From assembly GCA_035506195.1 (NCBI GenBank), contig DATJPV010000048.1, positions 2,011-66,010 of the forward strand: a DNA stretch of 64,000 bases. The letters run 5' to 3'. Below are positions 18,904 through 63,967 of the stretch, piece by piece. Below the pieces are notes generated by a model. The model was not told the origin of the DNA and ran no database searches. It worked only from the letters and a program-made list of their open reading frames with translations. Each line of letters opens with the position of its first letter. Position 1 is the first letter of the stretch. The DNA is from Patescibacteria group bacterium. GTDB taxonomy: Bacteria; Omnitrophota; Gorgyraeia; Gygaellales; Profunditerraquicolaceae. The translations under genes were made by a program, and so were the position numbers.

Positions 18904-18925
18904 ACACCGAGAGGAGGGTGTGTAT

Positions 18926-19519: not shown

Positions 19520-19534
19520 TTAACGGGAGGGTCC

Positions 19535-20238: not shown

Positions 20239-21288
20239 ATGGAGTCCCGCATGCACCCCCAACGCAAAAGCAACCTTACCGTTATCATCCCTGCGTACAA
20301 CGAGGCCAAGACTGTGGGCGATACCATCCGCAGCATTCAGGCTCAGACGATCGCCGCCGATGAGATCATTGTCATCGACGACTGCTCTCAGGATGCGACC
20401 GCCGAGGTCGCGCGCAGCCTGGGGGCAAGGGTGATCTCACCCGCCTGCAATACCGGTTCCAAGGCAGGAGCGCAGAATTTTGCCTTGCAGTTCGTGGAGA
20501 CGGAATTCGTCATGGCGGTTGATGCCGATACGACGCTTGCTCCGGATGCCATCGAGAAGCTGCTGGCTGCCTTATCCGAACAGGGGATGGCTGCGGCCTG
20601 CGGCTTTGTGGTGCCGCGGTACGTCAAGACGGTCTGGGAGCGGGGCCGCTATATCGAATACCTGTTTGCCTTTTCGTTCTTCAAGGAGATACAGGATTAT
20701 TACGAAAAGCCGCTGATCTCTTCCGGTTGTTTCTCTATCTACCGCACCCACATCCTGAAGCTGCATAAGGGTTGGTCCACGCGCACCCTGGCAGAAGACA
20801 TGGACCTGACCTGGACATTCTATCAGATGGGCCACGGCGTCCGTTTTGTGCCCGAGGCATTCTGCTATCCCATCGAACCCCATAATTTCCTCTTTATGCG
20901 CAGGCAGCTGAAACGCTGGTCGCACGGTTTTATGCAGAACGTGCGCCTGCACTGGTGGAAGGTCATGGAAGTCTCGTATTTGCGTTCCATCATTGCCGTG
21001 GCATTATGGGACGCGACGGTCGCGTCTCTGGCCTATCTTTTCCTGCTTCCGTTGCTGGCTCTGTGGTTCAGGAATCCCTTGTTCCTTTTAGGTTACGTCA
21101 TTGACGCTCCCGTAGTGCTGGTGCCTATCCTTTTGAACATCAAGAAAAGAAAGGAGATCCCCCGCATCCTTTCGAGCGTTCCTTCGTTTTTCTTCCTCAG
21201 GGCCGTCAACAGCATTTTTATGCTCGAAGCTTTTTGGAATGAGCTGGTCATGAAGCACACATTCTCCACCTATGAGAAAGGCCACTAA
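20239..21288 (+). CDS. processive family-2 glycosyltransferase (polysaccharide synthase; NodC/IcaA/cellulose-synthase-like) with C-terminal TM helices
   Basis: It has a GT-A N-terminus (LTVIIPAYNE, IIVIDDCSQD), a DAD motif and the Q-x-x-R-W motif (RRQLKRWSHG) followed by several TM helices. Confidence 0.75.
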   Translation: MESRMHPQRKSNLTVIIPAYNEAKTVGDTIRSIQAQTIAADEIIVIDDCSQDATAEVARSLGARVISPACNTGSKAGAQNFALQFVETEFVMAVDADTTLAPDAIEKLLAALSEQGMAAACGFVVPRYVKTVWERGRYIEYLFAFSFFKEIQDYYEKPLISSGCFSIYRTHILKLHKGWSTRTLAEDMDLTWTFYQMGHGVRFVPEAFCYPIEPHNFLFMRRQLKRWSHGFMQNVRLHWWKVMEVSYLRSIIAVALWDATVASLAYLFLLPLLALWFRNPLFLLGYVIDAPVVLVPILLNIKKRKEIPRILSSVPSFFFLRAVNSIFMLEAFWNELVMKHTFSTYEKGH

Positions 21289-39103: not shown

Positions 39104-39592
39104 ATGAAATATCCGGCGGTAAGCGTGATCATGGGCAGTCAATCCGATCTGGAAATAGTCAACGAAGCAATAAGCGTCCTTAAGGAATTCGGCGTTTCCT
39201 TCGAGGCAAAAGTTTTATCCGCGCACCGCAGCCCCAAAGAGCTGGCCGCCTACGTGGAGGCATCTTCTGCCAAAGGGGCCAGGGTGTTTATCGCCGCTGC
39301 CGGCGGCTCGGCAGCCCTGGCAGGCGTGGTTGCCGCGCACACGACCGTGCCGGTTATCGGCATCCCTATCGAGACCCGCAGCCTCAAAGGCCTGGATTCG
39401 TTATTGTCGACCGTGCAGATGCCTGCGGGCATCCCGGTTGCCTGCATGGCGATCGGCAAGGCAGGGGCGAAAAATGCGGGGCTTTTCGCTCTGGCGATAT
39501 TAGGGGCTACCGATACGAAGATAAGGGCAAAATTGGCGGCGCATAAAAAGGCAATGCGTCTTAAGGTCGCCCGGACAAAACTCGCCATATGA
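39104..39592 (+). CDS. purE: N5-carboxyaminoimidazole ribonucleotide mutase / AIR carboxylase
   Basis: MKYPAVSVIMGSQSDL...AGGSAALAGVVAAHTTVPVIGIP (PurE fold). The track ORF 39041-39592 is the same frame extended upstream. Confidence 0.85.
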   Translation: MKYPAVSVIMGSQSDLEIVNEAISVLKEFGVSFEAKVLSAHRSPKELAAYVEASSAKGARVFIAAAGGSAALAGVVAAHTTVPVIGIPIETRSLKGLDSLLSTVQMPAGIPVACMAIGKAGAKNAGLFALAILGATDTKIRAKLAAHKKAMRLKVARTKLAI

Positions 39593-40650
39593 TAAAGACT
39601 CGGATTGTTTCAGTCGATGCGATCAACCCCCGGGAAGAATATTTAAAAGAGGCGGCGGACGTCTTGAGGGAGGGAGGCCTGGTGGTCATTCCTACGGAGA
39701 CCGTCTACGGCGTCTGCGCAAACCTCTTGCACAAAAAAGCGGTGGCGCGGTTGTCCGAGATAAAGGCCCGGCCCAAGGATAAGCCATTCTCCCAGCACAT
39801 CGATAGGAAGGAAAAGATCGAGGCCCTGGCTAGGGATATACCCATCCAGGCCTATAAACTCATGGATGCTTTTTGGCCGGGGCCGCTGACGCTGGTATTC
39901 AAAGCGCGCGATAACGGCACGGTGGGCCTGCGTCTGCCGGATAACGAGATCGCGCAAAAAGTGATCGCGTTTGCGGATGTGCCGGTCGTCTGTCCGTCGG
40001 CAAACTTAAACGGTAAGCCCGCGCCGACGTGTTTCCGGGAAGCGCTGCAGGACCTTGAGGGGCTGGTCGAGTATGCCATAGATGCCGGGCCCACGAAACT
40101 CGGGCTCGAATCGACGGTAGTGGACGTCAGCTCCGATACCGTGGCGGTCCTGCGCGAAGGCGCGATCAAGAAGGAAGAGATCGAAAGGGTTGTCCGGACC
40201 AAGACCGTGCTTTTTATCTGCACGGGAAACTCCTGCCGTTCGGTCATGGCCCAGGCGCTGCTTCAGAAAAAGCTCAAGGAAGCCGGCCGCACCGACGTAG
40301 AGGTCCTTTCGGCGGGCATCATGATGCTCTCCGGCCTGGGGGCAAGCGAACCGACCAAGGAGGTCCTGCGGGAAGAAGGCATCGATGTCTCCGCTCACCG
40401 CTCGCAGCGGGTAACCAAGGAGCTGGCCCTGAAGTCCGATATCATCCTGGTCATGGAAAAGCTGCATGAAGAAAGGCTCTTGCAACTGGTCCCCGGGATA
40501 AAAAATAGGGTTTTTTTACTCAAAGAATTTGCTAAAATAAAGGATAACAATCTCAATATCGATGACCCCATCGGCACGACTCTTGAATTTTACCGGCAGA
40601 CCTGCGCCGTCATCAAGGAATCCGTAGAAAGGGTAAGCAATATCATATGA
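39589..40650 (+). CDS. tsaC: L-threonylcarbamoyladenylate synthase (TsaC/YrdC/YwlC) fused to a low-molecular-weight protein (Tyr/Arg) phosphatase (YwlE-like)
   Basis: The N-terminus has the YrdC motif GGLVVIPTETVYGVCANL. The C-terminus has the LMW-PTP P-loop VLFICTGNSCRSVMAQ (CX5R) and a DP loop near DDPIGT. Confidence 0.8.
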   Translation: MIKTRIVSVDAINPREEYLKEAADVLREGGLVVIPTETVYGVCANLLHKKAVARLSEIKARPKDKPFSQHIDRKEKIEALARDIPIQAYKLMDAFWPGPLTLVFKARDNGTVGLRLPDNEIAQKVIAFADVPVVCPSANLNGKPAPTCFREALQDLEGLVEYAIDAGPTKLGLESTVVDVSSDTVAVLREGAIKKEEIERVVRTKTVLFICTGNSCRSVMAQALLQKKLKEAGRTDVEVLSAGIMMLSGLGASEPTKEVLREEGIDVSAHRSQRVTKELALKSDIILVMEKLHEERLLQLVPGIKNRVFLLKEFAKIKDNNLNIDDPIGTTLEFYRQTCAVIKESVERVSNII

Positions 40651-41108
40651 AAAACGTACTTATCGCTTCCGATCACGCGGGGTTCAGGATGAAGGAGAAG
40701 CTGAAGCCCTACCTTCAGAAAAAAGGGTATGCGGTTAAAGACCTAGGTACCTACTCGACGCAGCGCTGCGACTATCCGGCTACCGCCTATGCCCTGGCAA
40801 AAGAGATCTCGCAAAAACGCTATGCGCGCGGGGTGTTGATCTGCAAGACCGGCATCGGCAATTCCATCGTGGCCAACCGGCTTCCGGGCGTGCGCGCCTC
40901 GCTGTGTTACAACTATTCGGCGGCAAAACTGACCCGCGAGCACAACGACAGCAATGTCCTGGTTCTAGCTTCCGCGTTCGTCACGCTCCCCCAGGCCAAA
41001 CGCATCGCAGGGGTATGGCTTGTGACGCCCTTTGCCGGTGGCAGGCACCAGAGGCGGCTCAACCAGATAAAGGCAATCGAAAAGGATATAAGAAAATGGA
41101 CAGTTTAA
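40647..41108 (+). CDS. rpiB: ribose-5-phosphate isomerase B
   Basis: [19 protein letters not shown]... (RpiB/LacAB family). Confidence 0.85.
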
Positions 41109-42358
41109 AACATCTTAAAGTAGTCGACCCGGATATCTACGCGTTGATCAACGCCGAAGTCAGAAGGCAGGAAGATAACCTGGAGCTGATCGCTTCGGAA
41201 AACTTTACGTCGCTGGCGGTGCTGGAGGCGCAAGGCTCGGTGCTCACCAATAAATACGCCGAAGGCTATCCCCATGCGCGCTGGTACGGCGGCTGCGACA
41301 ACGTCGACGAGGTCGAAGCCCTGGCGGTGGAGCGCGCAAAGAAATTGTTCAATGCCGAGCACGTCAACGTCCAGGCCCACTCCGGCTCGCAGGCGAACAT
41401 GGCGGTCTACTTTGCGGCCCTGGAGCCCGGGGATACGGTCCTGGCCATGGACCTTGCCTGCGGCGGGCACCTGACGCACGGCCACCCGCATAATTTTTCC
41501 GGGATGTTCTACAACATAGTGACCTACGGGGTGGACAAGAAGACCGAGCTCCTTGATTACGACTATATCTTGAGCCTTGCCAAGAAGCATAAACCCAGGA
41601 TGATCCTGGCGGGTGCATCGGCCTATCCGCGCAGGATCGATTTCAAGGCTTTCCGCGGCATCTGCGATAAGGTCGGCGCATACCTGTTCGTCGATATGGC
41701 CCATATCGCAGGCCTGGTAGCCGCAGGCATCCATCCTTCGCCTGTGCCTTACGCCGAATTCGTGAGCTCCACCACGCATAAGACCTTGCGCGGCCCCCGG
41801 GGAGGGTTCGTCATCTGCCGCAAGGACTTTGCCAAAAAGATCGATTCCCGCGTATTCCCCGGGATGCAGGGCGGCCCCCTGATGCACGTCATCGCCGCCA
41901 AGGCCGTCGTCTTTAAAGAGGCGATGACCCCGCGCTTTAAAAGTTACCAGAAACAGATCGTGGCAAACAGCAAGGAGCTTGCCCGCGCATTATCGAAGAA
42001 GGCCTTTCGGATCGTCTCATCGGGCACGGATACGCACCTGATGCTGGTAGACCTGACCGCCAAAGGCATCACCGGCGCGGATGCCTCGGCAGTGCTGGAA
42101 AAAGCCGGCATTACCGTCAATAAGAACCTGATCCCCTATGACCGTAAGAGCCCGGCGACCACCAGCGGCATACGGCTGGGGACCCCGGCAGTGACTACCC
42201 GCGGCATGAAACAGGCCCAGATGCGCCAGATCGCCCAATACATCGATGAGGCGATAGAAGCAAGCAACTACCCGGAGAGCGCCCAAGCCATCAGAAAGAA
42301 AGTCCTGGCCTTGACCGGGAGGTTCCCTCTCTATCCGGAATTGTGGGTGAAAAAATGA
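41096..42358 (+). CDS. glyA: serine hydroxymethyltransferase
   Basis: It has the PLP site [14 protein letters not shown]. The ATG at 41096 overlaps the rpiB stop. The track ORF 40904-42358 is the same frame extended upstream. Confidence 0.9.
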
Positions 42359-45673: not shown

Positions 45674-45737
45674 AATTCTCTACGAGAATTTTAGCGTACT
45701 CGTCAGGATTTCGCTAGATTTAAAATCAAGGAGCTCA
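45667..45737 (+). promoter_or_regulatory. repeated intergenic leader element, copy A: 14-bp perfect hairpin (ACGCTAAAATTCTC/GAGAATTTTAGCGT) + TCGTCAGGATTTCGCT box + SD
   Basis: The hairpin engulfs the cca stop codon. The conserved box lies at 45700-45715, and the ATG of the PilZ gene is at 45738. Confidence 0.45.
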
Positions 45738-46142
45738 ATGCTAAGCGGATATCGGAAATATTCGGGGAATGACCGGCGCAGGTTCCAGCGGCTTGATCTG
45801 AACGTGGTCGTCATGTACAGCGTCGCCGAGCCCCTGACCATCCGCGCCACCGTCGGAGACAGGGAGATAGAGGCGACGATGCTCAACTTGAGCCTCGGCG
45901 GCATGGGCCTGCTTACCGAATACAACCTTCCCGTCTGGACGCTTCTGGACATACGCTTCACCCTGACCAGGATCACCAAGGAAGGCACGGTAGGCATGTA
46001 CGGTCCGATGCGGATACGCGGGGAGGTCCGTTCCAACGTCCCGCTGGACGAAAAGGAATACCGCCTGGGGATCTCTTTTATCAGGATCGAAGACAAAGAC
46101 AAGGTGGGGTTGACGGAGTTCTTAAAAAGCATTATGAGGTGA
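45738..46142 (+). CDS. PilZ-domain protein (c-di-GMP receptor-like)
   Basis: It has an RRFQR N-terminal motif and a D..SLGGMGL motif (RxxxR ... DxSxxG). Confidence 0.7.
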   Translation: MLSGYRKYSGNDRRRFQRLDLNVVVMYSVAEPLTIRATVGDREIEATMLNLSLGGMGLLTEYNLPVWTLLDIRFTLTRITKEGTVGMYGPMRIRGEVRSNVPLDEKEYRLGISFIRIEDKDKVGLTEFLKSIMR

Positions 46143-52207: not shown

Positions 52208-52307
52208 GCGTCAAAATTTCCTACGGTCCCCTTACGAAGACAGGTAATTTTGACGCGTTCGCCAGGATTTCGCTAAACAAAAGCTTTAGGTGCTCAAGGA
52301 GGTCAGA
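52208..52307 (+). promoter_or_regulatory. repeated intergenic leader element, copy B: hairpin (GCGTCAAAATT/AATTTTGACGC, 27-nt loop) + TCGCCAGGATTTCGCT box + SD
   Basis: The box lies at 52259-52274, and the SD CAAGGAGG is followed by the htpX ATG at 52308. Confidence 0.45.
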
Positions 52308-53270
52308 ATGTTTTTTCTAAAACTAAGGATGTGGCTTCTGGTTACGGTACTTTTTGCGATCATCTATGCCGTTATCACGATGCTCGGCACGTCTATGGGT
52401 TTTGGCGGGTTCTATTTTTACCTGGCCATATCGCTGGCAATGATGCTGCTGCAGTATATGATCGGGCCAAAGATCGTGGAATGGACCATGCAGGTCAAGT
52501 ACGTGCGCCGGCAGGAATACCCGCGCCTGTTCCAGATGGTGGAAAGCCTGGCCAACAAGGCCGGGATCCCCGTGCCGAAGATCGGCATAGCCCAGATTGC
52601 CATCCCCAACGCCTTTGCTTTCGGCCGCGGCGTCAATGACGGTCGCGTCTGCGTCACCGAGGGCATCCTGCGGCTCCTGGATGAAAATGAGCTCAGGGCA
52701 GTGCTGGGCCACGAGCTTACGCACCTGAAAAACCGCGATGTCCTGACCATTACCCTGCTTTCGGTCATCCCGATGATCCTGTACCGCATCGCCTGGAATT
52801 TCCTGTTTTTCGGCCGCCGGCGCGATGAGCGGGGCAGCAATACCGTATTGATCGGCCTGGTCGCCTTTTTATTCTACTTTATCACCAATCTTCTGGTGCT
52901 GTACGCCTCGCGCATCCGCGAATATTTTGCCGATAGAGGCTCGGTATTGCTCGGCAACAGCCCTTCCGCCCTTGCCTCCAGCCTCTATAAACTGGTATAC
53001 GGTTCGGCGCGCATGGACCAGGAGACCCTGAAGGAGACCGAAGGGCTCAAAGCCTTCTTTGTCAACGATCCTTCTCAGGCGTTGAATGAGATCAAAGAGC
53101 TCAGGCAGCTTGACCTGGATAAAAGCGGGACCCTTGACCCGAATGAGCTGGCCCTTTTGCGCAGTAAAACCATACGTTTGAGCTTTGGAGACAAGATGCT
53201 TGAGCTTTTGAGCACCCATCCGAATATGCTTAAGCGCATCAAAAGGCTCTCTGAATATCCCAGAGCTTAA
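52308..53270 (+). CDS. htpX: M48-family zinc protease HtpX
   Basis: It has the HExxH motif LGHELTHLKNRD and 4 TM helices. The track ORF 52290-53270 is the same frame extended upstream. Confidence 0.85.
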   Translation: MFFLKLRMWLLVTVLFAIIYAVITMLGTSMGFGGFYFYLAISLAMMLLQYMIGPKIVEWTMQVKYVRRQEYPRLFQMVESLANKAGIPVPKIGIAQIAIPNAFAFGRGVNDGRVCVTEGILRLLDENELRAVLGHELTHLKNRDVLTITLLSVIPMILYRIAWNFLFFGRRRDERGSNTVLIGLVAFLFYFITNLLVLYASRIREYFADRGSVLLGNSPSALASSLYKLVYGSARMDQETLKETEGLKAFFVNDPSQALNEIKELRQLDLDKSGTLDPNELALLRSKTIRLSFGDKMLELLSTHPNMLKRIKRLSEYPRA

Positions 53271-53291
53271 ATCCGGAATGTAGGCCCTACA

Positions 53292-53328
53292 GGGGACGCT
53301 TTTCTCTCGGCAGAAGCGTCCCCTTTTC
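53292..53328 (+). terminator. rho-independent terminator after htpX
   Basis: A perfect 10-bp stem GGGGACGCTT/AAGCGTCCCC (53292-53301 and 53314-53323) is followed by TTTT. Confidence 0.6.
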
Positions 53329-53329: not shown

Positions 53330-53358
53330 TTGACATAACCCGAATTCTACTATATAAT
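53330..53358 (+). promoter_or_regulatory. perfect sigma70 consensus promoter TTGACA-N17-TATAAT for lysS (leaderless)
   Basis: TTGACA is at 53330-53335 and TATAAT at 53353-53358. The ATG at 53368 is ~3 nt from the predicted TSS and there is no SD. Confidence 0.55.
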
Positions 53359-53367: not shown

Positions 53368-54810
53368 ATGGATATAAGTGAAATTATCCAGCAAAGAAAG
53401 CATAAATTGGATACGCTGGTGGCTAAAGGCGTGCCGGTCCACGCCGGTCCCTTTGAGGCCAGGGTCGACATTGCCGCAGCTTTGGCCGAATTTCAGGAAG
53501 GCAAAAAGGTTAGCCTTTCCGGCAGGATTATGGCCCAGCGTTCGCACGGCAAGGTCGTCTTCGCGGACCTGCGCGACGCTACTGCCCGCATCCAGTTGTA
53601 TTTGAAAGCCGATTTTCTGGGCCAGGAAAAGTTTGGGCTGCTTGAGAACTTGGACATCGCCGATATTATCGCCGTCAAGGGAGAGCTTTTTAAGACGCAC
53701 ACCGGAGAATTCACGGTCAAGGTAGAAGATTTTGCCATACTTGCCAAGTCCTTAAGGCCCCTGCCGGAGAAGTGGCACGGCCTCAAGGATGTGGAGGTGC
53801 GCTATCGCCAGCGGTATCTGGACCTGGTAGCCAACGAAGAGGTCAAAAAGGTATTCGTCCTGCGTTCCCGGATCATCAAGGCCGTCAGGGATTTTCTGGA
53901 TAGCCGGGGGTTCCTGGAAGTAGAGACCCCGATGATGCACGATATCGCCGGAGGCGCGGCAGGCAGGCCTTTCGAGACCTTCCACAACGAATACAAACGG
54001 CGGCTGTACCTGCGCATCGCCCCCGAGCTTTACCTGAAGCGCCTTCTGGTGGCAGGCCTTGACCGCGTATACGAGATAAACCGCAGCTTCCGTAACGAAG
54101 GGGTCTCTACCCGGCATAACCCGGAGTTCACCATGCTTGAGGTGTACTGGGCGTATGCCGACTACCATAGCATGATGCAGTTGACCGAAGAACTTTTTTC
54201 GACGGTAGCCGCGCAGGTGCTGGGTAGCACCCAGATCGCCTACCAGGGCAAGTCCATTGACCTGACGCCGCCCTGGACCAGGCGCTCCTTTGCGCAGATG
54301 GTCAAAGAGAAGTTCGGGATATCTGCCGATGACGAAGCGGCTCAGATGTTGCAAAAACTGCAGGCCAAGGGTTTTGCCAAAGACAAAAGCCGGCTGACCC
54401 GTTCCCAGGTAGCCAAGATCATCGAAGACCTCCTGGAGCAGGACATGAGCATGAATCCGACCTTTGTGACGGATTATTTTACCAGCCTGTGCCCCTTAGC
54501 CAGGACCAGGAAAGACGACCCGTTGATCTCGGAGCGTTTCGAGCTTTATATCGCCGGCCTTGAAGTGGCGAATGCCTACTCCGAATTGAACGACCCCCTG
54601 GAACAGCGCCGGCGTTTTGAAGAAGAGATCAAAGACGCTCCGGCAGAAGAAAAAAAGTGCGTTGACGAAGAGTATGTGACCGCCCTGGAACACGGCATGC
54701 CTTGCGCAGGCGGCCTGGGGGTGGGCATCGACCGCCTGGTGATGCTGCTTGCGGACCAGGCCTCGATCAGGGACGTGATCCTTTTCCCGCTCCTGCGTCC
54801 CGAGGCTTAA
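53368..54810 (+). CDS. lysS: lysine--tRNA ligase (class II)
   Basis: It has an N-terminal OB anticodon-binding domain and class II motifs (FRNEGVSTRHNPEFTMLE, GGLGVGIDRLVMLL). Confidence 0.9.
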   Translation: MDISEIIQQRKHKLDTLVAKGVPVHAGPFEARVDIAAALAEFQEGKKVSLSGRIMAQRSHGKVVFADLRDATARIQLYLKADFLGQEKFGLLENLDIADIIAVKGELFKTHTGEFTVKVEDFAILAKSLRPLPEKWHGLKDVEVRYRQRYLDLVANEEVKKVFVLRSRIIKAVRDFLDSRGFLEVETPMMHDIAGGAAGRPFETFHNEYKRRLYLRIAPELYLKRLLVAGLDRVYEINRSFRNEGVSTRHNPEFTMLEVYWAYADYHSMMQLTEELFSTVAAQVLGSTQIAYQGKSIDLTPPWTRRSFAQMVKEKFGISADDEAAQMLQKLQAKGFAKDKSRLTRSQVAKIIEDLLEQDMSMNPTFVTDYFTSLCPLARTRKDDPLISERFELYIAGLEVANAYSELNDPLEQRRRFEEEIKDAPAEEKKCVDEEYVTALEHGMPCAGGLGVGIDRLVMLLADQASIRDVILFPLLRPEA

Positions 54811-54816
54811 AAAGAA

Positions 54817-56013
54817 ATGAAGACCGAACTTTTTATAGGGTGGCGTTATCTGTTCACCAGGAGAAAAGAGAAATTCATTTCCCTGATCAGCGTCATTTCG
54901 ATCCTGGGGATCGCCATCGGCGTCTGCGCGCTTATCGTCGTTATCGGCGTGATGACCGGCTTTGACCGTGACCTGCATGACAAGATCATCGGCAATTACT
55001 CCCATATTTCGATATCCGGTTACGGAGGCATAGGCGCAAAAGAATACGACCGCATCATCCTGCAGGTGGCCCCGAACCCGCACGTAAAAGGCATCAGCCC
55101 TTACGTGCTGGGGCAGGTCCTGATCAAGGCCGACGGCAAATTTTTTCCCGTGACCATCAAAGGGATAAAGCCATATACAGAAACGCAGGTCACCAAGCTC
55201 AAAGACTATCTCATCCAGGGGAATATCGACCAGCTGCAGGCTGACCCCGAAGCGGTCTTTATCGGGAAAGAGCTGGCGGTGTCCCTGGGGATGACAGTCG
55301 GCTCGACGTTGACGGTCTATTCGCCCGTGGGCAAGCAACATACCTTGCGCGTGGCGGGCATATTTTATTCCCGGATGTACGATTACGACATGAACCTTGT
55401 CTTTACCCCGCTTGAGACCGCGCAGGCGATCCTCGGTGCCGGCGACAAGGTCAGCGTGGTGGCGGTAAGGCTGGATAATGCCTATGCCGCGGATAAGGTC
55501 AGAAAAGAATTAAGCGCGGCGGTAGGCTCGGAATATGCCTTGAAGACCTGGATCGAGATGAACCCGAATTTCTTCGCGGCATTGAAGCTTGAGAAGCTGA
55601 CGATGTTCATCATCCTGACGCTGATCGTGCTGGTAGCATCCTTTAATATCATCAGCACTCTCATCGTCATGGTCGTCGAGAAGACCAAGGATATCGGGGT
55701 ATTGAAGGCAGTGGGGATGAAAGCCTCGGGTATCCGCAGGATCTTTACGTATGCGGGCCTGATCATGGGCGTCCTGGGGACGCTTCTGGGCACTGCCGCA
55801 GGCCTGGGCCTGTGTTTGCTGTTGCAGCGCTACCAGTTCATCAAGCTGCCGCAGGACATATATTATATCGACAGCCTGCCGGTTTCCGTGCAGCTGTGGC
55901 CGGATATTATCCTGATCGTGCTGGCGGCGATGTGCATTACGCTGGTCTCGACTATCTATCCAGCGATTAAAGCTGCAAGCCTGAAGCCGGTGGATGCCTT
56001 AAGATACGAGTAA
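54817..56013 (+). CDS. lolE: lipoprotein-releasing system permease (LolC/LolE, FtsX-like)
   Basis: It has the FtsX/MacB-type topology, a conserved N-terminus MKTELFIGWRYLFTRRKEKFIS, and a C-terminal FtsX domain. Confidence 0.8.
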   Translation: MKTELFIGWRYLFTRRKEKFISLISVISILGIAIGVCALIVVIGVMTGFDRDLHDKIIGNYSHISISGYGGIGAKEYDRIILQVAPNPHVKGISPYVLGQVLIKADGKFFPVTIKGIKPYTETQVTKLKDYLIQGNIDQLQADPEAVFIGKELAVSLGMTVGSTLTVYSPVGKQHTLRVAGIFYSRMYDYDMNLVFTPLETAQAILGAGDKVSVVAVRLDNAYAADKVRKELSAAVGSEYALKTWIEMNPNFFAALKLEKLTMFIILTLIVLVASFNIISTLIVMVVEKTKDIGVLKAVGMKASGIRRIFTYAGLIMGVLGTLLGTAAGLGLCLLLQRYQFIKLPQDIYYIDSLPVSVQLWPDIILIVLAAMCITLVSTIYPAIKAASLKPVDALRYE

Positions 56014-56015
56014 CG

Positions 56016-56696
56016 GTGATGCCGCTTATCGAAGCAAGAAATGTCCATAAGGTGTATAATCACAGCGTCAAGGCCTTGCACGTCTTGCGCGGAGTCGACC
56101 TAAAAATAGAGCAGGCGGCTTTCATTGCCTTGGTCGGCCCTTCGGGCGCGGGCAAGTCGACCCTGCTGCATATACTCGGCGGCCTGGATAATCCCAGCCG
56201 CGGAGAGGTCGTCTTTGAGGGCCGCAACCTGTATGGCCTGCAAGACGCCGAGATTTGCCGGATACGCAACGGCAGTATCGGGTTTGTATTCCAGTTCTAT
56301 CATCTGCTGCCCGAGTTTACGGTGTTGGAAAACGTACTCCTGCCGGGGCTCATCAACTCTCAGGAGCGCGGCAATAGCGCGCAAGCGCACCGCGGCGCCC
56401 TTGAGCTGTTGCAGCAAGTGGGACTGGCCGCCAGGGCCGGCCATTTTCCGGCGCAGCTTTCCGGAGGGGAAAAGCAGCGGGTTGCGATCGCCCGGGCCCT
56501 GGTCAACGGCCCGCAGCTGCTCTTATGCGACGAACCGACAGGCAACCTTGATTCCGCCAATGGCAACGAGATCATCGCGCTCATCAAGCGCTTGAATAAA
56601 GAGAACCGCATGACGGTAGTGCTGGTGACGCATAACCCGGAACTGGCAAAGGCAGCGGACCATATTTATAGATTAAACGACGGAGTATTGGCGTGA
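56016..56696 (+). CDS. lolD: lipoprotein-releasing system ATP-binding protein
   Basis: It has Walker A GPSGAGKST, the signature LSGGEKQRVAIARAL and Walker B LLLCDEPTGNLD. Confidence 0.85.
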   Translation: MMPLIEARNVHKVYNHSVKALHVLRGVDLKIEQAAFIALVGPSGAGKSTLLHILGGLDNPSRGEVVFEGRNLYGLQDAEICRIRNGSIGFVFQFYHLLPEFTVLENVLLPGLINSQERGNSAQAHRGALELLQQVGLAARAGHFPAQLSGGEKQRVAIARALVNGPQLLLCDEPTGNLDSANGNEIIALIKRLNKENRMTVVLVTHNPELAKAADHIYRLNDGVLA

Positions 56697-56716
56697 TGCT
56701 CAGCCTGACTCACGCG

Positions 56717-56797
56717 CAGCCCAAAATTCTCTGCGATAATTTTGGGCTGTTCGTCAGATTTCGCTGAATAAAAGCTTAAGGTTCTCAAGGAGGGTCT
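56717..56797 (+). promoter_or_regulatory. repeated intergenic leader element, copy C: hairpin (CAGCCCAAAATT/AATTTTGGGCTG, 9-nt loop) + TCGTCAGATTTCGCT box + SD
   Basis: The box lies at 56751-56765, and the SD CAAGGAGGG is followed by the ATG at 56798. Confidence 0.45.
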
Positions 56798-57667
56798 ATG
56801 AAAGTTTACATTAACGGCAAGATGTATGAGAAGAGCATGGCCAAGGTTTCCGTGTTTGACCACGGTCTTTTATACGGCGACGGGGTCTTCGAAGGCATCC
56901 GCGCCTATAACGGGCTGGTCTTTAAATTGAGAGAGCATATCGACCGGCTCTACGAGTCCGCCCATTCGATCATGCTGGATGTGTCGATGGCCAAGCAGGA
57001 GATGATCAATGCGGTGGTCAAGACCCTGAAGGCGAATAATCTCAAGGACGCCTATATCCGCCTTATCATTACCCGCGGCGAAGGCGACCTCGGGCTTGAC
57101 CCGCGCAAATGCAGGGGGAATGCGACCGTCATCATTATCGCCGACAAGGTGGCGTTGTACCCTGAACGGCTCTATAAAGAGGGGCTTTCCATCATCACCG
57201 TGCCTACGATCAGGAACCTTCCGGAGGCCCTGAACCCTCAGATCAAATCCCTGAATTACCTGAACAATATCCTGGCCAAGATCGAGGCGATCAATTCCGG
57301 CTCCGACGAGGCGATCATGCTCGATTCCCTCGGCTACGTGGCGGAATGCACCGGAGACAATATCTTTATCGTCAAATCGAACCACCTCTACACGCCGCCG
57401 CAATGCATGGGGACCCTGCGCGGTATCACCCGCGACACAGTGTTGGAGATCTCCAGGCGGGACAGGATCCCGGTGCACGAGCACGTGCTGACGCGCCATG
57501 AGGTGTTCATTTCCGACGAATGTTTCCTGACCGGTACCGCGGCGGAGATCATTCCCGTCGTCAAGGTCGACGGCCGGACGATCGGAAGCGGCAAGCCGGG
57601 CAAGATGACGTTGAGCCTCATCAAAAAGTTCCGGCAGGTCACCAAGACCGAAGGGGTCAAATATTGA
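56798..57667 (+). CDS. class IV aminotransferase (branched-chain amino acid / D-amino acid aminotransferase family)
   Basis: PLP fold-type IV; the N-terminal LLYGDGVFEGIRAY region and the ~290 aa length match the class. Confidence 0.75.
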   Translation: MKVYINGKMYEKSMAKVSVFDHGLLYGDGVFEGIRAYNGLVFKLREHIDRLYESAHSIMLDVSMAKQEMINAVVKTLKANNLKDAYIRLIITRGEGDLGLDPRKCRGNATVIIIADKVALYPERLYKEGLSIITVPTIRNLPEALNPQIKSLNYLNNILAKIEAINSGSDEAIMLDSLGYVAECTGDNIFIVKSNHLYTPPQCMGTLRGITRDTVLEISRRDRIPVHEHVLTRHEVFISDECFLTGTAAEIIPVVKVDGRTIGSGKPGKMTLSLIKKFRQVTKTEGVKY

Positions 57668-58194
57668 TGCTGTGCGATATCTGTAATAAAAACCAGGCCA
57701 CCGTGCATCTGACCGAGATCATCGATGATCAGATGAACGAACTGCATCTGTGCGAGGAATGCGCCCGTCAGAAGAGCGCCCAGATGGAGCAGCAGTTCGG
57801 CTTAAGCGACCTTTTGGCTGGGATGGCGCAGTCCGAAAAGCCCAACGCGGAAAAAGAGGCCTTGAACCTGAAATGCCCCAGCTGCAAGCTTACCTACGCG
57901 GATTTCAAAAAGATAGGCCGGCTCGGCTGCGGCGACTGTTATGTGACGTTCAAGAGGTTTTTAAGCCCCCTGTTAAAAAGGATCCACGGCTCAAGCCAAC
58001 ATTTCGGCAAGACCCCGTTTAAGACGGGCGGCAAGGCCGTCAGGAAAAAGGCCGACCTGCAGGAACTGCGCGCCGGGCTTCAGAAGGCTATCGAAGCCGA
58101 GGATTTCGAAGAGGCGGCAAGGCTGCGCGACCAGATCAGAGAAATGGAAAGGCAGCAGCATAACGAAGGAAAGGCGACGGAACATGACGCTTGA
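57667..58194 (+). CDS. mcsA: McsA-like protein-arginine kinase activator (2 Zn-finger pairs + UVR motif)
   Basis: It has CDICN...CEEC and CPSC...CGDC motifs, and a UVR domain FEEAARLRDQIREME. The ATG overlaps the upstream stop (TGATG). The track ORF 57520-58194 is the same frame extended upstream. Confidence 0.75.
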   Translation: MLCDICNKNQATVHLTEIIDDQMNELHLCEECARQKSAQMEQQFGLSDLLAGMAQSEKPNAEKEALNLKCPSCKLTYADFKKIGRLGCGDCYVTFKRFLSPLLKRIHGSSQHFGKTPFKTGGKAVRKKADLQELRAGLQKAIEAEDFEEAARLRDQIREMERQQHNEGKATEHDA

Positions 58195-59233
58195 TGAATT
58201 GCTGCATCATTCCAGCGAATGGCTGAAGAGTACCGGCCCCAATTCCGATATCGTTATCTCAAGCCGCATCCGGCTGGCCAGGAATCTCGATAAATTCCCT
58301 TTTCCGCACTGGGCGTCTAAAAAGCAGGGCGAAGAGGTCCTGCTTGCCATCGAAGGGGCGGTTTCGCGCGTAGAGTACCTGAAGAATACGACGGTATTCC
58401 ATCTGGCGGACTTAGACAGCGTGGATAAACAGTTCCTGGTCGAAAGGCACCTGATGTCGCATGAACACGCCCAGAAGACAAACCATAAAGCGGTCATCAT
58501 CGATAGCGAAGAGATCGTGGCGATCATGGTCAACGAAGAGGACCACCTGCGCATGCAGGTCATGCAGTCGGGCTTTAACCTGCGGGGGGCATGGGAGATC
58601 ATCAACAGCATAGACGATGCCTTGGCAAAGGAGCTGCCCATCGCGTTCCTTCCGGAGTGGGGGTACCTGACGGCCTGCCCCACCAATACCGGCACCGGGA
58701 TGCGCGGCTCCGTTATGCTGCACCTGCCGGCCCTGGTGATGACCCGTCAGATCAACCGCGTGTTGGCGGCGATCTCTAAATTAAGCTTTACTACCCGCGG
58801 CCTGTACGGCGAAGGCACGGAAGCAACGGGTAATTTCTTTCAGATCTCTAATCAGGTATCGCTGGGCCATAGCGAAGACGAGATCATCGAGAACATCAAC
58901 GGCCTGATCCGGCAGATCATCGAGCAGGAGAATCAGGCGCGGGAAATGCTGATGCTGCGCAGCAAGGCGATGCTGGAAGACAGGATCAGCCGCGGCTTCG
59001 GGATCCTCAAGAGCGCGCACATCATTTCCAGCCAGGAGACGATCGAGCTTTTGTCTATGGTAAGGCTGGGCAGCGACCTCGGCCTGCTCAAGGATATCGA
59101 CCGCCGGTCGATAAACGAGCTTTTCATCGTCACCCAGCCGGCGCACCTGCAGAAGATCGAGAACAAAAGATTGAATTCCCAGGAACGCGACTTAAAACGC
59201 GCGGAGATCATCCGCGATAAATTGAAAACCTAA
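58184..59233 (+). CDS. mcsB: protein arginine kinase (ATP:guanido phosphotransferase)
   Basis: It has the phosphagen-kinase active-site signature CPTNTGTGMR, and its length and domain order match McsB. Confidence 0.85.
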   Translation: MTLDELLHHSSEWLKSTGPNSDIVISSRIRLARNLDKFPFPHWASKKQGEEVLLAIEGAVSRVEYLKNTTVFHLADLDSVDKQFLVERHLMSHEHAQKTNHKAVIIDSEEIVAIMVNEEDHLRMQVMQSGFNLRGAWEIINSIDDALAKELPIAFLPEWGYLTACPTNTGTGMRGSVMLHLPALVMTRQINRVLAAISKLSFTTRGLYGEGTEATGNFFQISNQVSLGHSEDEIIENINGLIRQIIEQENQAREMLMLRSKAMLEDRISRGFGILKSAHIISSQETIELLSMVRLGSDLGLLKDIDRRSINELFIVTQPAHLQKIENKRLNSQERDLKRAEIIRDKLKT

Positions 59234-59248
59234 CCACGGAGGCACTGA

Positions 59249-61666
59249 ATGTTTAACCGTTTTACGGAAAGAGCGCGCAAGGTCATTATATTGGCAAAGG
59301 AAGAGGCACGGCGTTTCAACCACGACTACATCGGCACCGAGCACATCCTGCTGGGGCTTATCCGCGAAGGAGAGGGAGTGGCGGCGACCGTGTTGCAGAA
59401 GATGGGCGTATCCTTAGAGAACATCCGCCTGGAGGTCGAAAAGCTCGTCCAGCCCGGTCCTACGACCCAGATCATCGGAGACATCCCCTTTACTCCCCGG
59501 GCCAAAAAGGCGCTGGAGCTGGCGGCGGAGGAGGCCCGTTCCCTGGGGCATAATTACATCGGCACCGAGCACCTGCTGCTGGGGCTTATCCGCGAAGGAG
59601 AAGGCGTTGCTTCTCAGGTCCTTCTGAACCTGGGCTTGGATTTGAATACGGTCAGAAATGAGGTCATGGATATCCTCGGTTCGGCGCTCCCCGGCTTTGG
59701 CCAGACCGCGCAGAAAACCAAGACCCCCGCCCTGGATGCTTTCGGCAGGGACCTGACCGCCCTGGCAAAAGAGAATAAACTGGACCCGGTCATCAACCGC
59801 AAGATGGAGATCGAGCGGGTCATTCAGATATTAAGCCGCCGGACCAAGAACAATCCCGTGCTCCTCGGCGAGGCAGGGGTCGGCAAGACCGCCATCGTCG
59901 AAGGCCTGGCCCAGGCGATCATCGCCGGTAACGTCCCGGAGATCCTGCACGGCAAGCGCATCGTGGTCCTGGACCTGGCATTGATGATCGCCGGCACCAA
60001 ATACCGCGGCCAGTTCGAGGAAAGGATCAAGGCGGTCATGGAAGAGATCAAGCGCTCTCAGGAAGTGATCATCTTCGTCGATGAGCTGCATACGCTGGTG
60101 GGCGCGGGCGCTGCGGAAGGGGCGATCGACGCCTCCAATATCCTGAAGCCTTCGCTTTCCCGCGGAGAGATCCAGTGTATCGGCGCCACCACCCTGGATG
60201 AGTACAGGAAATACATCGAGAAAGACGCTGCCCTGGAACGCCGTTTCCAGACGATCATGGTTGAACCGCCTTCGGTCGAGCAGACCATCGATATCCTCAA
60301 GGGCCTGCGCGATAAATACGAGGCCCATCACCGCGTCACCTTCAAGGACGAAGCCCTGGAGGCCGCGGCGAAGATGTCCGACCGGTATATCTCGGGCAGG
60401 TTCCTGCCGGACAAGGCCATCGACCTGATCGATGAGGCGGGTTCCCGCGCAAGGCTCAACGTCCTCATCGTGCCTCCGGATATCAAGAAGCTGGAGGAGA
60501 AGGTTGAGTCTTTACGCAAGGAAAAAGAGGCATACATAAAGAGCCAGGATTTTGAAAAAGCGGCAGCCCTGCGCGACCAGGAAAGGACAGCGCGCCAGGA
60601 ATTGGAGCAGCTCAACAAGGAATGGTCCCAGGCAAAGGATAAGATGCGGCCGCAGGTAGGCGACGAAGAGATCGCCAAGATCGTTTCGCAGTGGACCGGC
60701 ATACCCATCTTCCGTCTCGAGGAGAAAGAAAGCGCCAAGCTTTTGAAGATCGAAGATGAGCTGCACGTGCGCGTTGTCGGCCAGGAAGAGGCCATCCGCG
60801 CCATCGCCTCGGCTATCCGCAGGTCCCGCGCGGGCATCAAGGATCCCCGCCGGCCTATCGGCTCCTTCATTTTCCTGGGGCCCACCGGCGTAGGAAAGAC
60901 CCTTTTGGCCAGGGCCCTGGCCGAGGTCATGTTCGGCGACGAGGACGCGCTCCTGCAGCTGGACATGTCCGAGTATATGGAGAAGTTCAACGTCTCCCGG
61001 CTCATCGGCGCGCCTCCCGGCTATGTAGGCTATGAAGAGGGGGGCCAGTTGACCGAACGGGTCAGGCGCAGGCCGTATTCGGTGGTGCTGTTGGATGAGA
61101 TCGAAAAGGCGCATCCCGACGTATTCAACCTCCTGTTACAGGTGTTTGAGGACGGTCGGCTCACCGACAGCTTTGCCAGAAAAGTGGATTTCCGCAACAC
61201 CCTGATGTTGATGACTTCTAACGTCGGCGCGGAATTGATCCGCAAGGCAAGCTCCCTGGGATTTGCCAACCGCAAAGAAGAGATCACCTACCAGGAGATG
61301 AAGGAAAAGCTCCTGGAAGAGGTAAAACGGACCTTCAAGCCGGAGTTCCTTAACCGTATCGACGACGTCATCGTGTTCAAGCCGTTGACTAAGGAAGACC
61401 TGCAGCGGATCGTCGATATCGAGATAGGCTACGTCGCTGACCGGCTCAAGGAACAGGGCATCAAGCTTGAGCTTACCCCGGAGGCAAGGGATTTTCTCAT
61501 CGAAAAAGGTTTTGATCCGGTTTTCGGCGCCAGGCCCCTGAAAAGGACCATTCAGCGCTTCGTCGAGGATTCTCTGGCTTCGGATATCATCTCCAAGAAA
61601 TTCCAGACCGGAGCAACGGTCAAGCTCTTGCGTAAAAACGAAGAGCTTACTTTTGAACAGGTATGA
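59249..61666 (+). CDS. clpC: ATP-dependent Clp protease ATP-binding subunit ClpC
   Basis: It has an N-terminal Clp_N repeat pair, two AAA+ modules (GEAGVGKTA; GPTGVGKT), a UVR linker and a ClpB_D2-small domain. It is 805 aa. Confidence 0.9.
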
Positions 61667-62466
61667 TTTTTAGTCGCAACCCCATATCGGCGTCGATTAT
61701 CTTGATCGGCAAAAGGGCGATAGCCTTCGGGTATTTTCTGGGAGGCTTAAGCCGGCTGTCCTTCGAGACGTTCTACTGGGCCTTCGTGCCTCCGTACAAG
61801 AAAGAACGGATATTCGAGCAGGCCAAGAGGGCAGGCGTCGACAGCTTGCCGCTCGTTTCGCTGATCGGTTTCTTTATGGGCGTGATCCTGGCGTTCCAGA
61901 CCGCATACCTGATGCAGAAACTCGGCTCTGAAATGTATATCGCCAGTATCGTCGCGCTTTCCCTGGTGCGGGAACTGGGGCCGGTGATCACCGCGCTGGT
62001 AGTGGCCGGCCGCGTAGGCGCGGCCATCGCCGCCGAGATCGGCTCCATGCAGGTGACCGAGCAGATAGACGCGCTGGAGACCATGGCCACCAACCCCATT
62101 AAATACCTGGTGGTGCCCAGGTTCCTGGCGTTAAGCCTGATGCTTCCGATCCTGGTTTTATACTCGGACATCATCGGTATTCTCGGCGGGTATATGATCT
62201 GCGTATACCGCCTGGGGATCCCCGGCAGCATGTACATGACCATAACCTTCGACTCCCTGTTGTATAAAGATGTCTTCACGGGCCTTGCCAAGACCGTGTT
62301 TTTCGGCATGATCATCGCCCTGGTCAGCTGTTATCAGGGCTTTAACGTCGAAGGCGGAGCGGTAGGCGTGGGAAGGGCGACCATGCGTGCGGTAGTCACT
62401 ACGTTCATTCTGATCCTGGCCGCCGACTGTTTCTTTACGGCCTTGTTCTATTTTATTTTCCCTTAG
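61663..62466 (+). CDS. mlaE: phospholipid ABC transporter permease MlaE
   Basis: LVRELGPVITALVVAGRVGAAIAAEIGSMQVTEQIDALETMA is the MlaE/Ttg2B signature. Confidence 0.85.
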   Translation: MIFSRNPISASIILIGKRAIAFGYFLGGLSRLSFETFYWAFVPPYKKERIFEQAKRAGVDSLPLVSLIGFFMGVILAFQTAYLMQKLGSEMYIASIVALSLVRELGPVITALVVAGRVGAAIAAEIGSMQVTEQIDALETMATNPIKYLVVPRFLALSLMLPILVLYSDIIGILGGYMICVYRLGIPGSMYMTITFDSLLYKDVFTGLAKTVFFGMIIALVSCYQGFNVEGGAVGVGRATMRAVVTTFILILAADCFFTALFYFIFP

Positions 62467-62467
62467 C

Positions 62468-63250
62468 ATGATCGACATAAAAAATCTATCGAAGGTATTC
62501 AATAGCCGCCAGGTCATAGACGGCCTCAACCTGAAGATCGAGACCGGCCAGACCCTGGTGATCATCGGTCGTTCCGGCTGCGGCAAGAGCGTCCTGTTAA
62601 AGCACATCATCGGCTTATTGAAGCCCGACCACGGGCACATCTATATTGACGGTAAAGACGTTACCGTCTTGAATACCGACGAAATGAACGCCTTGCGCAC
62701 AAGGGTAGGCATGGTGTTCCAGGGCGCGGCACTGTTCGATTATATGACCGTAGGCGAGAACGTCGGCTTTAGCCTCATCGAACACGGCCACGTGGACCGT
62801 ACGGAACTTTTGGAGCGGGTAGAGGAATCGCTGGCGATGGTCGACCTTCACGGCATAGGCAACCTTATGCCGTCGGAACTTAGCGGCGGGATGAAAAAAC
62901 GCGTCTCCCTTGCCCGGACGATATGCAATCGCCCGGAGATCATCCTGTATGACGAGCCGACGACGGGAGTGGACCCCATCACCGCGGATAGTATCAACGA
63001 GCTTATCAGGAGCCTGCACGATAAATTAAAGGTTACCTCGATCGTCGTGACGCACGATATGAAAAGCGCCTATAAGATCGCGGACAGGATCGCGATGATG
63101 TACCAGGGCAAGATCATCGCCGAAGGGGCGCCCGCGGAGATCGAGCACAGCCAGCACCCCGTGGTGCATCAGTTTGTTAACGGCCTGGCCCATGGTCCCA
63201 TCACCGAGACCATCGAACACTGCCGGCCGGGAGATATTTGTATTACCTGA
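62468..63250 (+). CDS. mlaF: phospholipid ABC transporter ATP-binding protein MlaF
   Basis: It has Walker A GRSGCGKS, the signature LSGGMKKRVSLAR and Walker B ILYDEPTTGVD. Confidence 0.85.
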   Translation: MIDIKNLSKVFNSRQVIDGLNLKIETGQTLVIIGRSGCGKSVLLKHIIGLLKPDHGHIYIDGKDVTVLNTDEMNALRTRVGMVFQGAALFDYMTVGENVGFSLIEHGHVDRTELLERVEESLAMVDLHGIGNLMPSELSGGMKKRVSLARTICNRPEIILYDEPTTGVDPITADSINELIRSLHDKLKVTSIVVTHDMKSAYKIADRIAMMYQGKIIAEGAPAEIEHSQHPVVHQFVNGLAHGPITETIEHCRPGDICIT

Positions 63251-63277
63251 CATATTCATTACAACTGGAGGTTCGAA

Positions 63278-63967
63278 ATGATATTCGGACAAACTAAACT
63301 CGAGTTGAAGGTAGGTATCTTTGTGTTTGTGGGCCTCATCATACTTACCATCTTCATCCTGAAGATCGGCGATTTCCGGACCGCCGCTATGGGGCACCCG
63401 GTGAATTTCGTGTTCCATTTTACCAACGGCGTCAAGACCGGAGCGCCGGTGCGATTTGCCGGAGTGGACATCGGAGAGATCAAAGATATTGTTTTTATAA
63501 CCTCCAAAGACCAGGATAAGACCCAGGTCAGGCTCACCGGTTGGATCAGGAAGGACGTCAAGATCCCCCGGGATTCGACGGTCTGGGTCAACACGCTGGG
63601 CCTGTTGGGGGAGAAGTATATCGAGATCATGCCCGGCAAGAATTACGCGGACTGCGTCGTCGATAATGATACCCTGGTCGGCAACGACCCGCTGGCGATG
63701 CACGAGTTAGGAGAGATCGCCAAGAATGTCGTCATGGACCTGGATGCGGTCATCGTCAAGATCAAGAACAACGAGGGCACGATCGGCAAACTCCTGTCTG
63801 ACGAGTCCCTCTACAAAGAACTGGAAGCTTCTATCGTTGCCTTGCGCCAGCAATTGCAGGCTACCATCGGCAACGTCGGTACCAACTTAGACGGCCTGAT
63901 TAGCGATGTCAGGGCCAACCCTTGGAAGCTCTTTTGGAAGACCAAAGAAAAGCCGCCTAAAAAATAA
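63278..63967 (+). CDS. mlaD: MCE-domain protein MlaD
   Basis: It has an N-terminal TM and an MCE core (VKTGAPVRFAGVDIGEIKDI). Confidence 0.8.
   Translation: MIFGQTKLELKVGIFVFVGLIILTIFILKIGDFRTAAMGHPVNFVFHFTNGVKTGAPVRFAGVDIGEIKDIVFITSKDQDKTQVRLTGWIRKDVKIPRDSTVWVNTLGLLGEKYIEIMPGKNYADCVVDNDTLVGNDPLAMHELGEIAKNVVMDLDAVIVKIKNNEGTIGKLLSDESLYKELEASIVALRQQLQATIGNVGTNLDGLISDVRANPWKLFWKTKEKPPKK

Follow-up and report, generated by a model that had tools for sequence, protein, structure and literature searches.

The mcsA-mcsB-clpC module and its products

The DNA analysed here, referred to as the window, is a stretch of 64,000 nt from contig DATJPV010000048.1 (assembly GCA_035506195.1, positions 2,011 to 66,010, forward strand). 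The host is a member of Candidatus Omnitrophota, diderm bacteria of the Planctomycetes-Verrucomicrobia-Chlamydiae (PVC) group. Close to its 3′ end the window encodes McsA, McsB and ClpC, that is, homologs of the phosphoarginine (pArg) tagging system of Bacillus subtilis, which here probably operates independently of the repressor CtsR. The three genes are:

57667-58194, + strand: mcsA, 175 aa, with two four-cysteine zinc fingers and a UVR/coiled-coil domain
58184-59233, + strand: mcsB, protein arginine kinase, 349 aa, with a kinase domain and a dimerisation domain containing the pArg receptor site
59249-61666, + strand: clpC, AAA+ unfoldase, 805 aa, with two Clp_N repeats, a short UVR middle domain and an LGF loop

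Both the identities of these genes and their tight linkage had been proposed in a first-pass annotation, and both are borne out by the open reading frames (ORFs), which lie at these coordinates, and by family and structure matches. The junctions had been given as 10 nt and 15 nt; the 15-nt spacer between mcsB and clpC stands, but mcsA and mcsB are really joined by an overlap of 11 nt. The linkage is far above chance because the same gene order is found in 80 related genomes (see below).

McsA can be aligned in its entirety to the B. subtilis protein (PDB 8wtb_B, E=1.5e-32), and its UVR domain is recognized by Pfam with 33.4 bits. Its zinc fingers consist of C3/C6/C29/C32 and C70/C73/C88/C91; all eight zinc-binding cysteines align with those of the B. 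subtilis protein and are invariant in Omnitrophota (70/70 sequences).

McsB exceeds the cutoff of the NCBIfam equivalog for protein arginine kinase (NF002194, 458.7 vs. 385 bits), and its residues 10-347 match the McsB structures from B. subtilis and Geobacillus in the PDB with E~1e-94, a match over the whole length. The ATP:guanido phosphotransferase catalytic domain (PF00217, 227 bits) is the sole Pfam-A match, and the McsB_C dimerisation domain (PF27454) is precomputed for the exact window protein. Identity is 44.5% to B. subtilis McsB and 45-52% to other diderm homologs. The motif CPTNTGTGMR, which the first-pass annotation had singled out, is indeed read in the window protein. Residue conservation was assessed by aligning 81 Omnitrophota McsB sequences with B. 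subtilis McsB, in which residue roles have been defined by experiment, namely for the NEEDH motif and the catalytic cysteine (PMC11046695), for R190/R194 as sites of autophosphorylation, and for S285/R337/D338/R341 as the pArg receptor site (PMC8370763). R29 and E120, E121, D122 and H123 of the NEEDH motif, further C167, P168, T169, N170 and E212, and all four receptor residues are invariant (81/81 in each case); of the 81 sequences, 66 retain R190 and 65 retain R194, and the window McsB has both. Mutation of the catalytic residues, which would have spoken against a working kinase, was looked for; the residues are intact, and there is no hint of decay.

Natural fusions of McsA and McsB, 502-544 aa in length, were encountered in metagenomes (P0207, P0232, P0231 and P0135). 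At the N-terminus, 100-180 residues of these proteins are similar to the McsA of the window, with E values of 1e-15 to 1e-30, and the fusions lend “Rosetta-stone” support to a partnership of McsA and McsB outside the model organisms.

ClpC aligns with B. subtilis ClpC from end to end without a gap (1062 bits). Its UVR middle domain (residues 416-448) is short and not of the long ClpB type. The N-domain has its two GTEH motifs, like 65 of the 66 ClpC sequences from Omnitrophota; we take the pArg-binding glutamates of these motifs to be E32 and E106 in B. subtilis ClpC numbering. In the D2 domain an LGF tripeptide aligns with the ClpP-docking VGF of B. subtilis, and a docking loop of the form (L/I/M)GF is found in all 66 sequences. 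Searches by tblastn for ClpP, HrcA, MecA and ClpS had no match in the 64-kb window or in the related loci that were fetched, which is uninformative on the whole genome; to our knowledge, ClpP is near-universal in bacteria. The genes mcsA, mcsB and clpC are almost certainly functional.

Gene neighborhood and distribution

According to the ORF list, all genes between 53.3 and 64.0 kb are on the + strand with minimal spacing. Four genes precede the module and three follow it:

53368-54810, + strand: lysS, for lysyl-tRNA synthetase, with which the conserved string begins
54817-56013, + strand: lolC/E-like permease of a lipoprotein-release ABC transporter (MacB_PCD and FtsX domains; TIGR02212, 340.8 bits, slightly under the cutoff of 362)
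56016-56696, + strand: lolD-like ABC ATPase (TIGR02211 as best family, 268 bits, below cutoff)
56798-57667, + strand: ilvE, class-IV (branched-chain) aminotransferase (BCAT subfamily NF006185, 460 bits vs. a cutoff of 363)
61663-62466, + strand: mlaE (TIGR00056, 246 bits, exceeding the cutoff of 212)
62468-63250, + strand: mlaF, ABC ATPase, assigned by domain and family searches
63278-63967, + strand: mlaD, assigned by domain and family searches

The stop codon of ilvE and the start codon of mcsA overlap in the sequence TGATG, and the last 4 nt of clpC (ATGA) are shared with mlaE. The gap between lolD and ilvE is 101 nt in this genome and about 20 nt in most relatives. The products LolC/E, LolD, MlaE, MlaF and MlaD, together with an OmpA/Pal-LysM protein also encoded in the window, represent outer-membrane functions; the diderm setting previously deduced from Lol, Mla and OmpA-like proteins is confirmed by these family matches.

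A scan with one genome per species yielded more than 561 relatives of McsB, the best 80 of which (69-81% identity) were examined as loci. These 80 all belong to metagenome-assembled genomes (MAGs) of Candidatus Omnitrophota, some of them under old “Planctomycetales” labels. When the ten window proteins were used as tblastn queries, the order lysS-lolC-lolD-ilvE-mcsA-mcsB-clpC-mlaE-mlaF-mlaD was colinear in essentially every locus of sufficient length. On the source contig, radA (TIGR00416, 601 bits), a PIN/TRAM gene, ispD, ispF, cysE, cysS, tmk, holB, ricT, metG and tatD follow 3′ of mlaD; the segment from radA to cysS is also colinear in those related loci which reach far enough (53 for radA, dropping to 31 for cysS). 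Two deep lineages of Omnitrophota, with McsB proteins about 48-50% identical, retain lysS-lolC-lolD-ilvE-mcsA-mcsB-clpC; in one of them an extra gene and then mlaEFD follow, the other is devoid of mlaEFD and has one gene before radA. The mlaEFD genes are a lineage-variable insertion after clpC. In both deep lineages the gene located directly 3′ of clpC lacks a Pfam match (L088, 12615-14540, 641 aa; L089, 8627-9481, 284 aa); it precedes mlaE in the one and radA in the other.

The B. subtilis clpC region, with the order ctsR-mcsAB-clpC-radA-disA, presumably continues with yacL (PIN/TRAM), ispD, ispF, gltX, cysE and cysS, with lysS just upstream of ctsR; the order tmk...holB-yaaT (ricT)...metS-yabD (tatD) we take to be another conserved run of that genome. 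A block of about 20 genes from lysS to tatD (53368-63967 of the window and 10691-20690 of the source contig, L083) is colinear with these two regions of B. subtilis, and the synteny between a diderm of the PVC group and Firmicutes is thus a deep one.

The 120 best homologs of McsB are all from Omnitrophota and at least 78% identical; representatives of clusters at 50% identity, and the cluster names, were used for McsB beyond this phylum. Among the nearest such representatives are proteins of Planctomycetota, Verrucomicrobiota and Dependentiae, and also of Bacillota. A MAG of Verrucomicrobiota encodes a lolD-like gene (48% identity), ilvE (50%), mcsA, mcsB and clpC (60%) in this order, one of Planctomycetota encodes mcsA-mcsB alone, and one of Dependentiae (GCA_017999075.1; L087, 6699-8643) has mcsB without mcsA or clpC next to it. 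The Dependentiae mcsB directly follows a gene for an HDOD/HD-domain protein, perhaps a regulatory partner of another kind. The module is standard equipment of Omnitrophota, and no fewer than three further phyla of diderms have it; that it is an oddity of this genome, as had been implied at first, did not hold, since the 80 nearest species-level genomes, where the contigs are long enough, and both deep lineages have it with the same flanks.

Absence of CtsR from the window and probable expression of the operon

That no ctsR gene accompanies the module, as stated in the first-pass annotation, proved correct. The four genes 5′ of mcsA are all identified (lysS, lolC, lolD and ilvE), and none of them is ctsR. 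With B. subtilis CtsR as tblastn query, which was validated by its match to PDB 3h0d (E=1e-67), nothing was found in the window, in the 80 Omnitrophota loci or in the loci from other phyla (L085-L087). Likewise, the window contains neither a CtsR operator (tandem heptad RGTCAAA-NAN-RGTCAAA, with up to two mismatches allowed) nor a controlling inverted repeat of chaperone expression (CIRCE, up to four mismatches). In the related loci, matches to the CtsR box and to CIRCE are scattered and of low quality, and none lies upstream of the operon. From the window and related loci we infer that CtsR is absent from the genome as a whole, which is consistent with CtsR having been described only for Gram-positives.

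Two signals lie in the short interval between htpX, which encodes a putative membrane protease, and lysS:

53291-53324: intrinsic terminator with a 13-bp stem, after htpX and before lysS
53330-53358: sigma-70 promoter of perfect consensus (TTGACA-17-TATAAT), straight after the terminator and 10 nt 5′ of lysS

The gene string is probably read through from lysS, since in most relatives the gap between lolD and ilvE amounts to only about 20 nt. At the borders of the module there are no genes of mobile elements and no tRNAs.

A candidate phosphoarginine phosphatase

The first-pass annotation had ascribed to the window the full set of writer, eraser and reader for pArg-tagged proteolysis. McsB and ClpC would be writer and reader; the eraser it named is encoded at some distance from the module:

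39589-40650, + strand: fusion of TsaC (Sua5/YrdC; TIGR00057, 192 bits) with a protein tyrosine phosphatase of low molecular weight (LMW-PTP; PF01451, 109.8 bits), candidate pArg phosphatase

The fusion (PF01300 and PF01451, about 353 aa) is followed by rpiB and glyA (block 39589-42358), and its counterpart in B. subtilis is presumably the order ywlC-ywlE-ywlF(rpiB)-glyA. All 120 best homologs contain both domains, and those with an organism label are from Omnitrophota, save the exact match. Both the CX5R(S/T) P-loop of LMW-PTPs and the DPIG motif, with the predicted general-acid aspartate, are present. The phosphatase domain matches the arginine phosphatase of Geobacillus (4pic, 4.5e-21) and B. 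subtilis YwlE (9e-17; 1zgg and 4kk3 are YwlE-type entries), and these matches rank above phosphotyrosine (pTyr) phosphatases such as Wzb. Top-ranked in the PDB is 4egs (6e-23), a chain of LMW-PTP type that has a CTGNTCRS loop and was entered there as RpiB.

The P-loop of the window protein reads CTGNSCRS and thus has serine at position 5, where YwlE has Thr11; serine is found there in 119 of the 120 best homologs as well (117 CTGNSCRS, 2 CSGNSCRS). Fusion and serine alike are phylum-wide. In YwlE and in Drosophila DARP the threonine at this position confers specificity for pArg, and its replacement by isoleucine leads to activity towards pTyr (PMC7772506). Serine retains the hydroxyl group and is not the isoleucine of pTyr phosphatases; the fusion is a plausible candidate for the eraser. 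The full set originally claimed is thus supported in part: the pArg-specific threonine is replaced by serine, and ClpP is not encoded in the window.

The same P-loop, CTGNSCRS, also occurs in thioredoxin-coupled arsenate reductase (ArsC). Assignment of the domain to ArsC was rejected, as the YwlE-type match is by far the better one (1e-21 vs. 5e-9) and no counterpart of Cys82/Cys89, which we take to be the redox pair characteristic of ArsC, is visible.

A probable CtsR-independent phosphoarginine system

The arrangement is best explained as a canonical and functional McsA/McsB/ClpC phosphoarginine system which is independent of CtsR and has been vertically inherited in Candidatus Omnitrophota; we put the probability of this reading at roughly 0.78. 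By analogy to B. subtilis, McsA, with its two zinc fingers and coiled coil, would activate McsB, which would in turn phosphorylate arginine residues of misfolded or aberrant proteins. McsB is probably self-gated, with autophosphorylated R190 and R194 binding to its own pArg receptor pocket. The N-domain of ClpC, which has two sites for pArg binding, would capture the tagged proteins; ClpC would then unfold them and hand them over via the LGF loop to a ClpP encoded elsewhere. Expression would not depend on CtsR; rather, the genes appear to be translationally coupled into a long operon of housekeeping and envelope functions. In this genome ilvE is preceded by a local leader motif which is also found before htpX.

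The likeness to B. subtilis extends to the order mcsA-mcsB-clpC, the zinc-finger/coiled-coil architecture of McsA, the catalytic, autophosphorylation and pArg receptor residues of McsB, and the GTEH motifs, short M-domain and ClpP loop of ClpC. It further includes lysS upstream and radA, a yacL-type PIN/TRAM gene, ispD, ispF, cysE and cysS downstream, as well as the order tsaC-ywlE-rpiB-glyA at the second locus. Unlike in B. subtilis, there is no ctsR gene or operator; its place is taken by lolC-lolD-ilvE, with ilvE translationally coupled to mcsA. Also, mlaEFD is located between clpC and radA, disA and gltX are missing from the block, the window phosphatase forms a fusion with TsaC and carries serine in place of Thr11, and the host is a diderm. 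The mycobacterial ClpC1 region, presumably arranged as lysS-lsr2-clpC1 ... radA-disA ... ispD-ispF-cysS, appears to represent the same ancient neighborhood. Among PDB entries the N-domain of the window ClpC matches those of mycobacterial ClpC1 best (E~3e-56); in contrast to the situation here, mycobacterial clpC1 is presumably not accompanied by genes for McsA and McsB.

Within the PVC group, Chlamydia trachomatis has ClpC and a separately encoded McsAB, and its ClpCP2P1 degrades casein in vitro only if it is arginine-phosphorylated (PMC10128030). Like the window's host it is a diderm for which no CtsR has been described and which has a ClpC with conserved pArg-type features (PMC10128030). In Chlamydia, however, mcsAB is flanked by tRNAs and lies apart from clpC, while in the window the three genes are contiguous in a conserved operon; the Planctomycetota MAG, with mcsA-mcsB alone, resembles the chlamydial arrangement.

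It is unlikely that the system is mainly nonproteolytic, with McsB, McsA and ClpC (plus the phosphatase) serving as a disaggregase or chaperone, or as a switch acting on a target other than CtsR, for example another repressor. A chaperone mode of ClpC, McsB, McsA and YwlE in B. subtilis is described in a preprint (bioRxiv 10.1101/2022.09.15.508104), and heat-shock repressors are named as major targets of McsB in Firmicutes (PMC11046695). A candidate phosphatase is encoded in the window, and tblastn revealed no ClpP there or in the related loci. The absence of ClpP from 64 kb, however, says nothing on the genome, and ClpP is near-universal in bacteria; moreover, the docking loop is conserved in each of the 66 ClpC proteins, and chlamydial ClpC together with ClpP1P2 is an active, pArg-dependent protease.

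Transfer of the three genes from a Firmicute in recent times, with ctsR left behind, is very improbable. It could be argued that the pArg system is classically Gram-positive, that the 44.5% identity of the window McsB to that of B. subtilis is similar to its identity to other diderm homologs, and that horizontal transfer was proposed for the tRNA-flanked mcsAB of Chlamydia by the authors of the mBio study (PMC10128030). But module and flanks are shared, as far as the contigs permit, by the 80 closest Omnitrophota, by the two deep lineages and by one genome of Verrucomicrobiota. With a GC content of 0.55-0.58 and a GC content at third codon positions (GC3) of 0.72-0.76, mcsA, mcsB and clpC are indistinguishable from their neighbors, and neither mobile-element genes nor tRNAs mark the borders. 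A phylogeny of McsB, suggested earlier as a means to distinguish transfer from vertical descent, was run as a neighbor-joining tree of 144 sequences; it places the Omnitrophota proteins in a clade of their own with Dependentiae neighboring and Bacillota elsewhere, but is star-like and without support. The strongest argument comes from the flanks: over about a dozen genes they are colinear with the region around clpC in Bacillus, with lolCD and ilvE in the slot of ctsR. This fits ancient shared ancestry of the neighborhood far better than three genes imported recently, and makes vertical descent from ancient times more probable than a transfer of recent date.

Finally, a function of the window “McsB” as a phosphagen (free arginine) kinase for energy buffering can hardly be upheld and was rejected: although phosphagen kinases have the same catalytic domain (PF00217) and arginine and creatine kinases are among the weaker PDB matches, the N-terminal phosphagen-kinase domain is missing, PF00217 being the only Pfam-A match and the 349 aa aligning over their whole length with McsB, the McsB-specific dimerisation domain PF27454 is present, the pArg receptor site is invariant, the equivalog threshold of NF002194 is exceeded, and the gene overlaps a bona fide mcsA and stands before clpC.

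Several points weigh against a canonical, CtsR-independent and vertically inherited system. McsA scores below the NCBIfam equivalog for McsA (NF053706; 169.7 bits vs. a cutoff of 210); this model is Bacillus-centered, and the score indicates a divergent member of the family. Since not all members of the phylum have R190 and R194, gating of the octamer may not be general. The searches for ClpP, CtsR and HrcA covered, besides the window, related loci amounting to about 1.4 Mb, and the neighbor-joining tree, being star-like and without support values, is weak evidence. The enzymatic activities and the partnership with ClpP are those expected by homology to B. subtilis, and the structure and boundaries of the operon are deduced from gene overlaps and gaps. 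Lastly, a scan for the sigma-70 consensus revealed no site directly 5′ of ilvE.

Implications

Occurrence of the system in a diderm is not novel, contrary to what had been implied at first: it has been published for Chlamydia (PMC10128030), and McsA/McsB homologs have been mentioned for “some Proteobacteria” and “some gram-negative bacteria,” though said never to have been characterized (PMC11046695). A preprint of 2026 nevertheless states that Gram-negatives are generally considered to be without pArg machinery. The NCBI and JGI pipelines already label Omnitrophota proteins “protein arginine kinase”; a literature search pairing McsB with PVC phyla found no paper on the system in Omnitrophota, Planctomycetota or Verrucomicrobiota. 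What is new is a diderm phylum with a complete, residue-perfect and CtsR-free mcsA-mcsB-clpC operon in a neighborhood colinear with that of Bacillus, and the same block in a genome of Verrucomicrobiota. This suggests that the function as a degradation tag is older and wider than the heat-shock circuit of Firmicutes. The operons offer natural CtsR-free variants for biochemistry as well as a data point for the debate on gene-order ancestry shared by monoderm and diderm lineages; no new mechanism is revealed, and the finding is modestly novel.

A more speculative scenario, which we consider rather unlikely, is that phosphoarginine tagging is ancestral in PVC diderms, with CtsR a later addition in Firmicutes, and that the module is wired into envelope biogenesis. 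If so, it would be cotranscribed and translationally coupled with LolCD, IlvE and, in many lineages, MlaEFD, and here share its leader with htpX; McsB and ClpC(P) would police mislocalized precursors of lipoproteins, outer-membrane proteins and secretory proteins in the cytoplasm, a role new in comparison to the Gram-positive system. The evidence for a link between pArg quality control and envelope biogenesis does not extend beyond gene order.

The leader motif and other features of the window

As noted in the first-pass annotation, the module is preceded by the class-IV aminotransferase gene (assigned by NF006185) and by one copy of a repeated leader element. The copies in the window, and the hairpin before ilvE, are:

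56717-56749: hairpin with a 12-bp stem (CAGCCCAAAATT / AATTTTGGGCTG), between lolD and ilvE
56759-56793, + strand: leader copy, reading TTTCGC-N18-TCTCAA and then GGAGG; it ends 5 nt before the ATG of ilvE
52268-52307, + strand: leader copy (from 52268), followed by the gene for an htpX-like M48 membrane protease (52308-53270)
45709-45741, + strand: leader copy, heading an envelope-like operon of unassigned genes with genes for AsmA-like and OmpA/LysM proteins at its end

The leader is a linear motif of two blocks, TTTCGC-N17/18-(G/T)CTCAA, usually followed by GGAGG and a start codon; it can be written as GGATTTCGCT-RRAYAAAAG-...-GTGCTCAA(GGAGG), immediately 5′ of start codons. A hairpin usually precedes it, and the hairpins of the three copies in the window have a common AAAATTCTC...GAATTTT core. 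In relatives the motif is patchy: it is found before ilvE in loci L049 (8469) and L054 (8569) and before mcsA in L060 (9449), with further copies in L034 (27 and 2031) and L058 (3899). It does not accompany the ilvE-mcsAB-clpC operon throughout the phylum.

No consensus RNA structure was predicted for the leader motif (0 pairs), and the whole window contains no Rfam family at gathering thresholds. A riboswitch or attenuator was dropped from consideration because of the 0 consensus pairs; assignment of the motif by eye to sigma-70, sigma-E or sigma-54 was unconvincing, with the sigma-70 scan empty 5′ of ilvE. The leader is a candidate promoter or operator; a mobile leader is another possibility.

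The label of the source MAG as Patescibacteria, under which a protein identical to the product of the ORF at 39589-40650 has been deposited at NCBI ([Patescibacteria group bacterium]), is probably wrong, because the relatives of the window's genes are all from Omnitrophota and the window encodes outer-membrane functions of the Lol, Mla and OmpA type.

Elsewhere in the window, direct repeats of 102 nt (34 codons) form long arrays in several paralogous genes (3766-9087 and 25694-26809), as is typical of tetratricopeptide-repeat (TPR) proteins. Further paralogous segments are located at 197-496, 4316-4615, 5773-6072 and 9189-9488, and a gene block of about 1 kb is duplicated (11403-12328 and 14067-15001).

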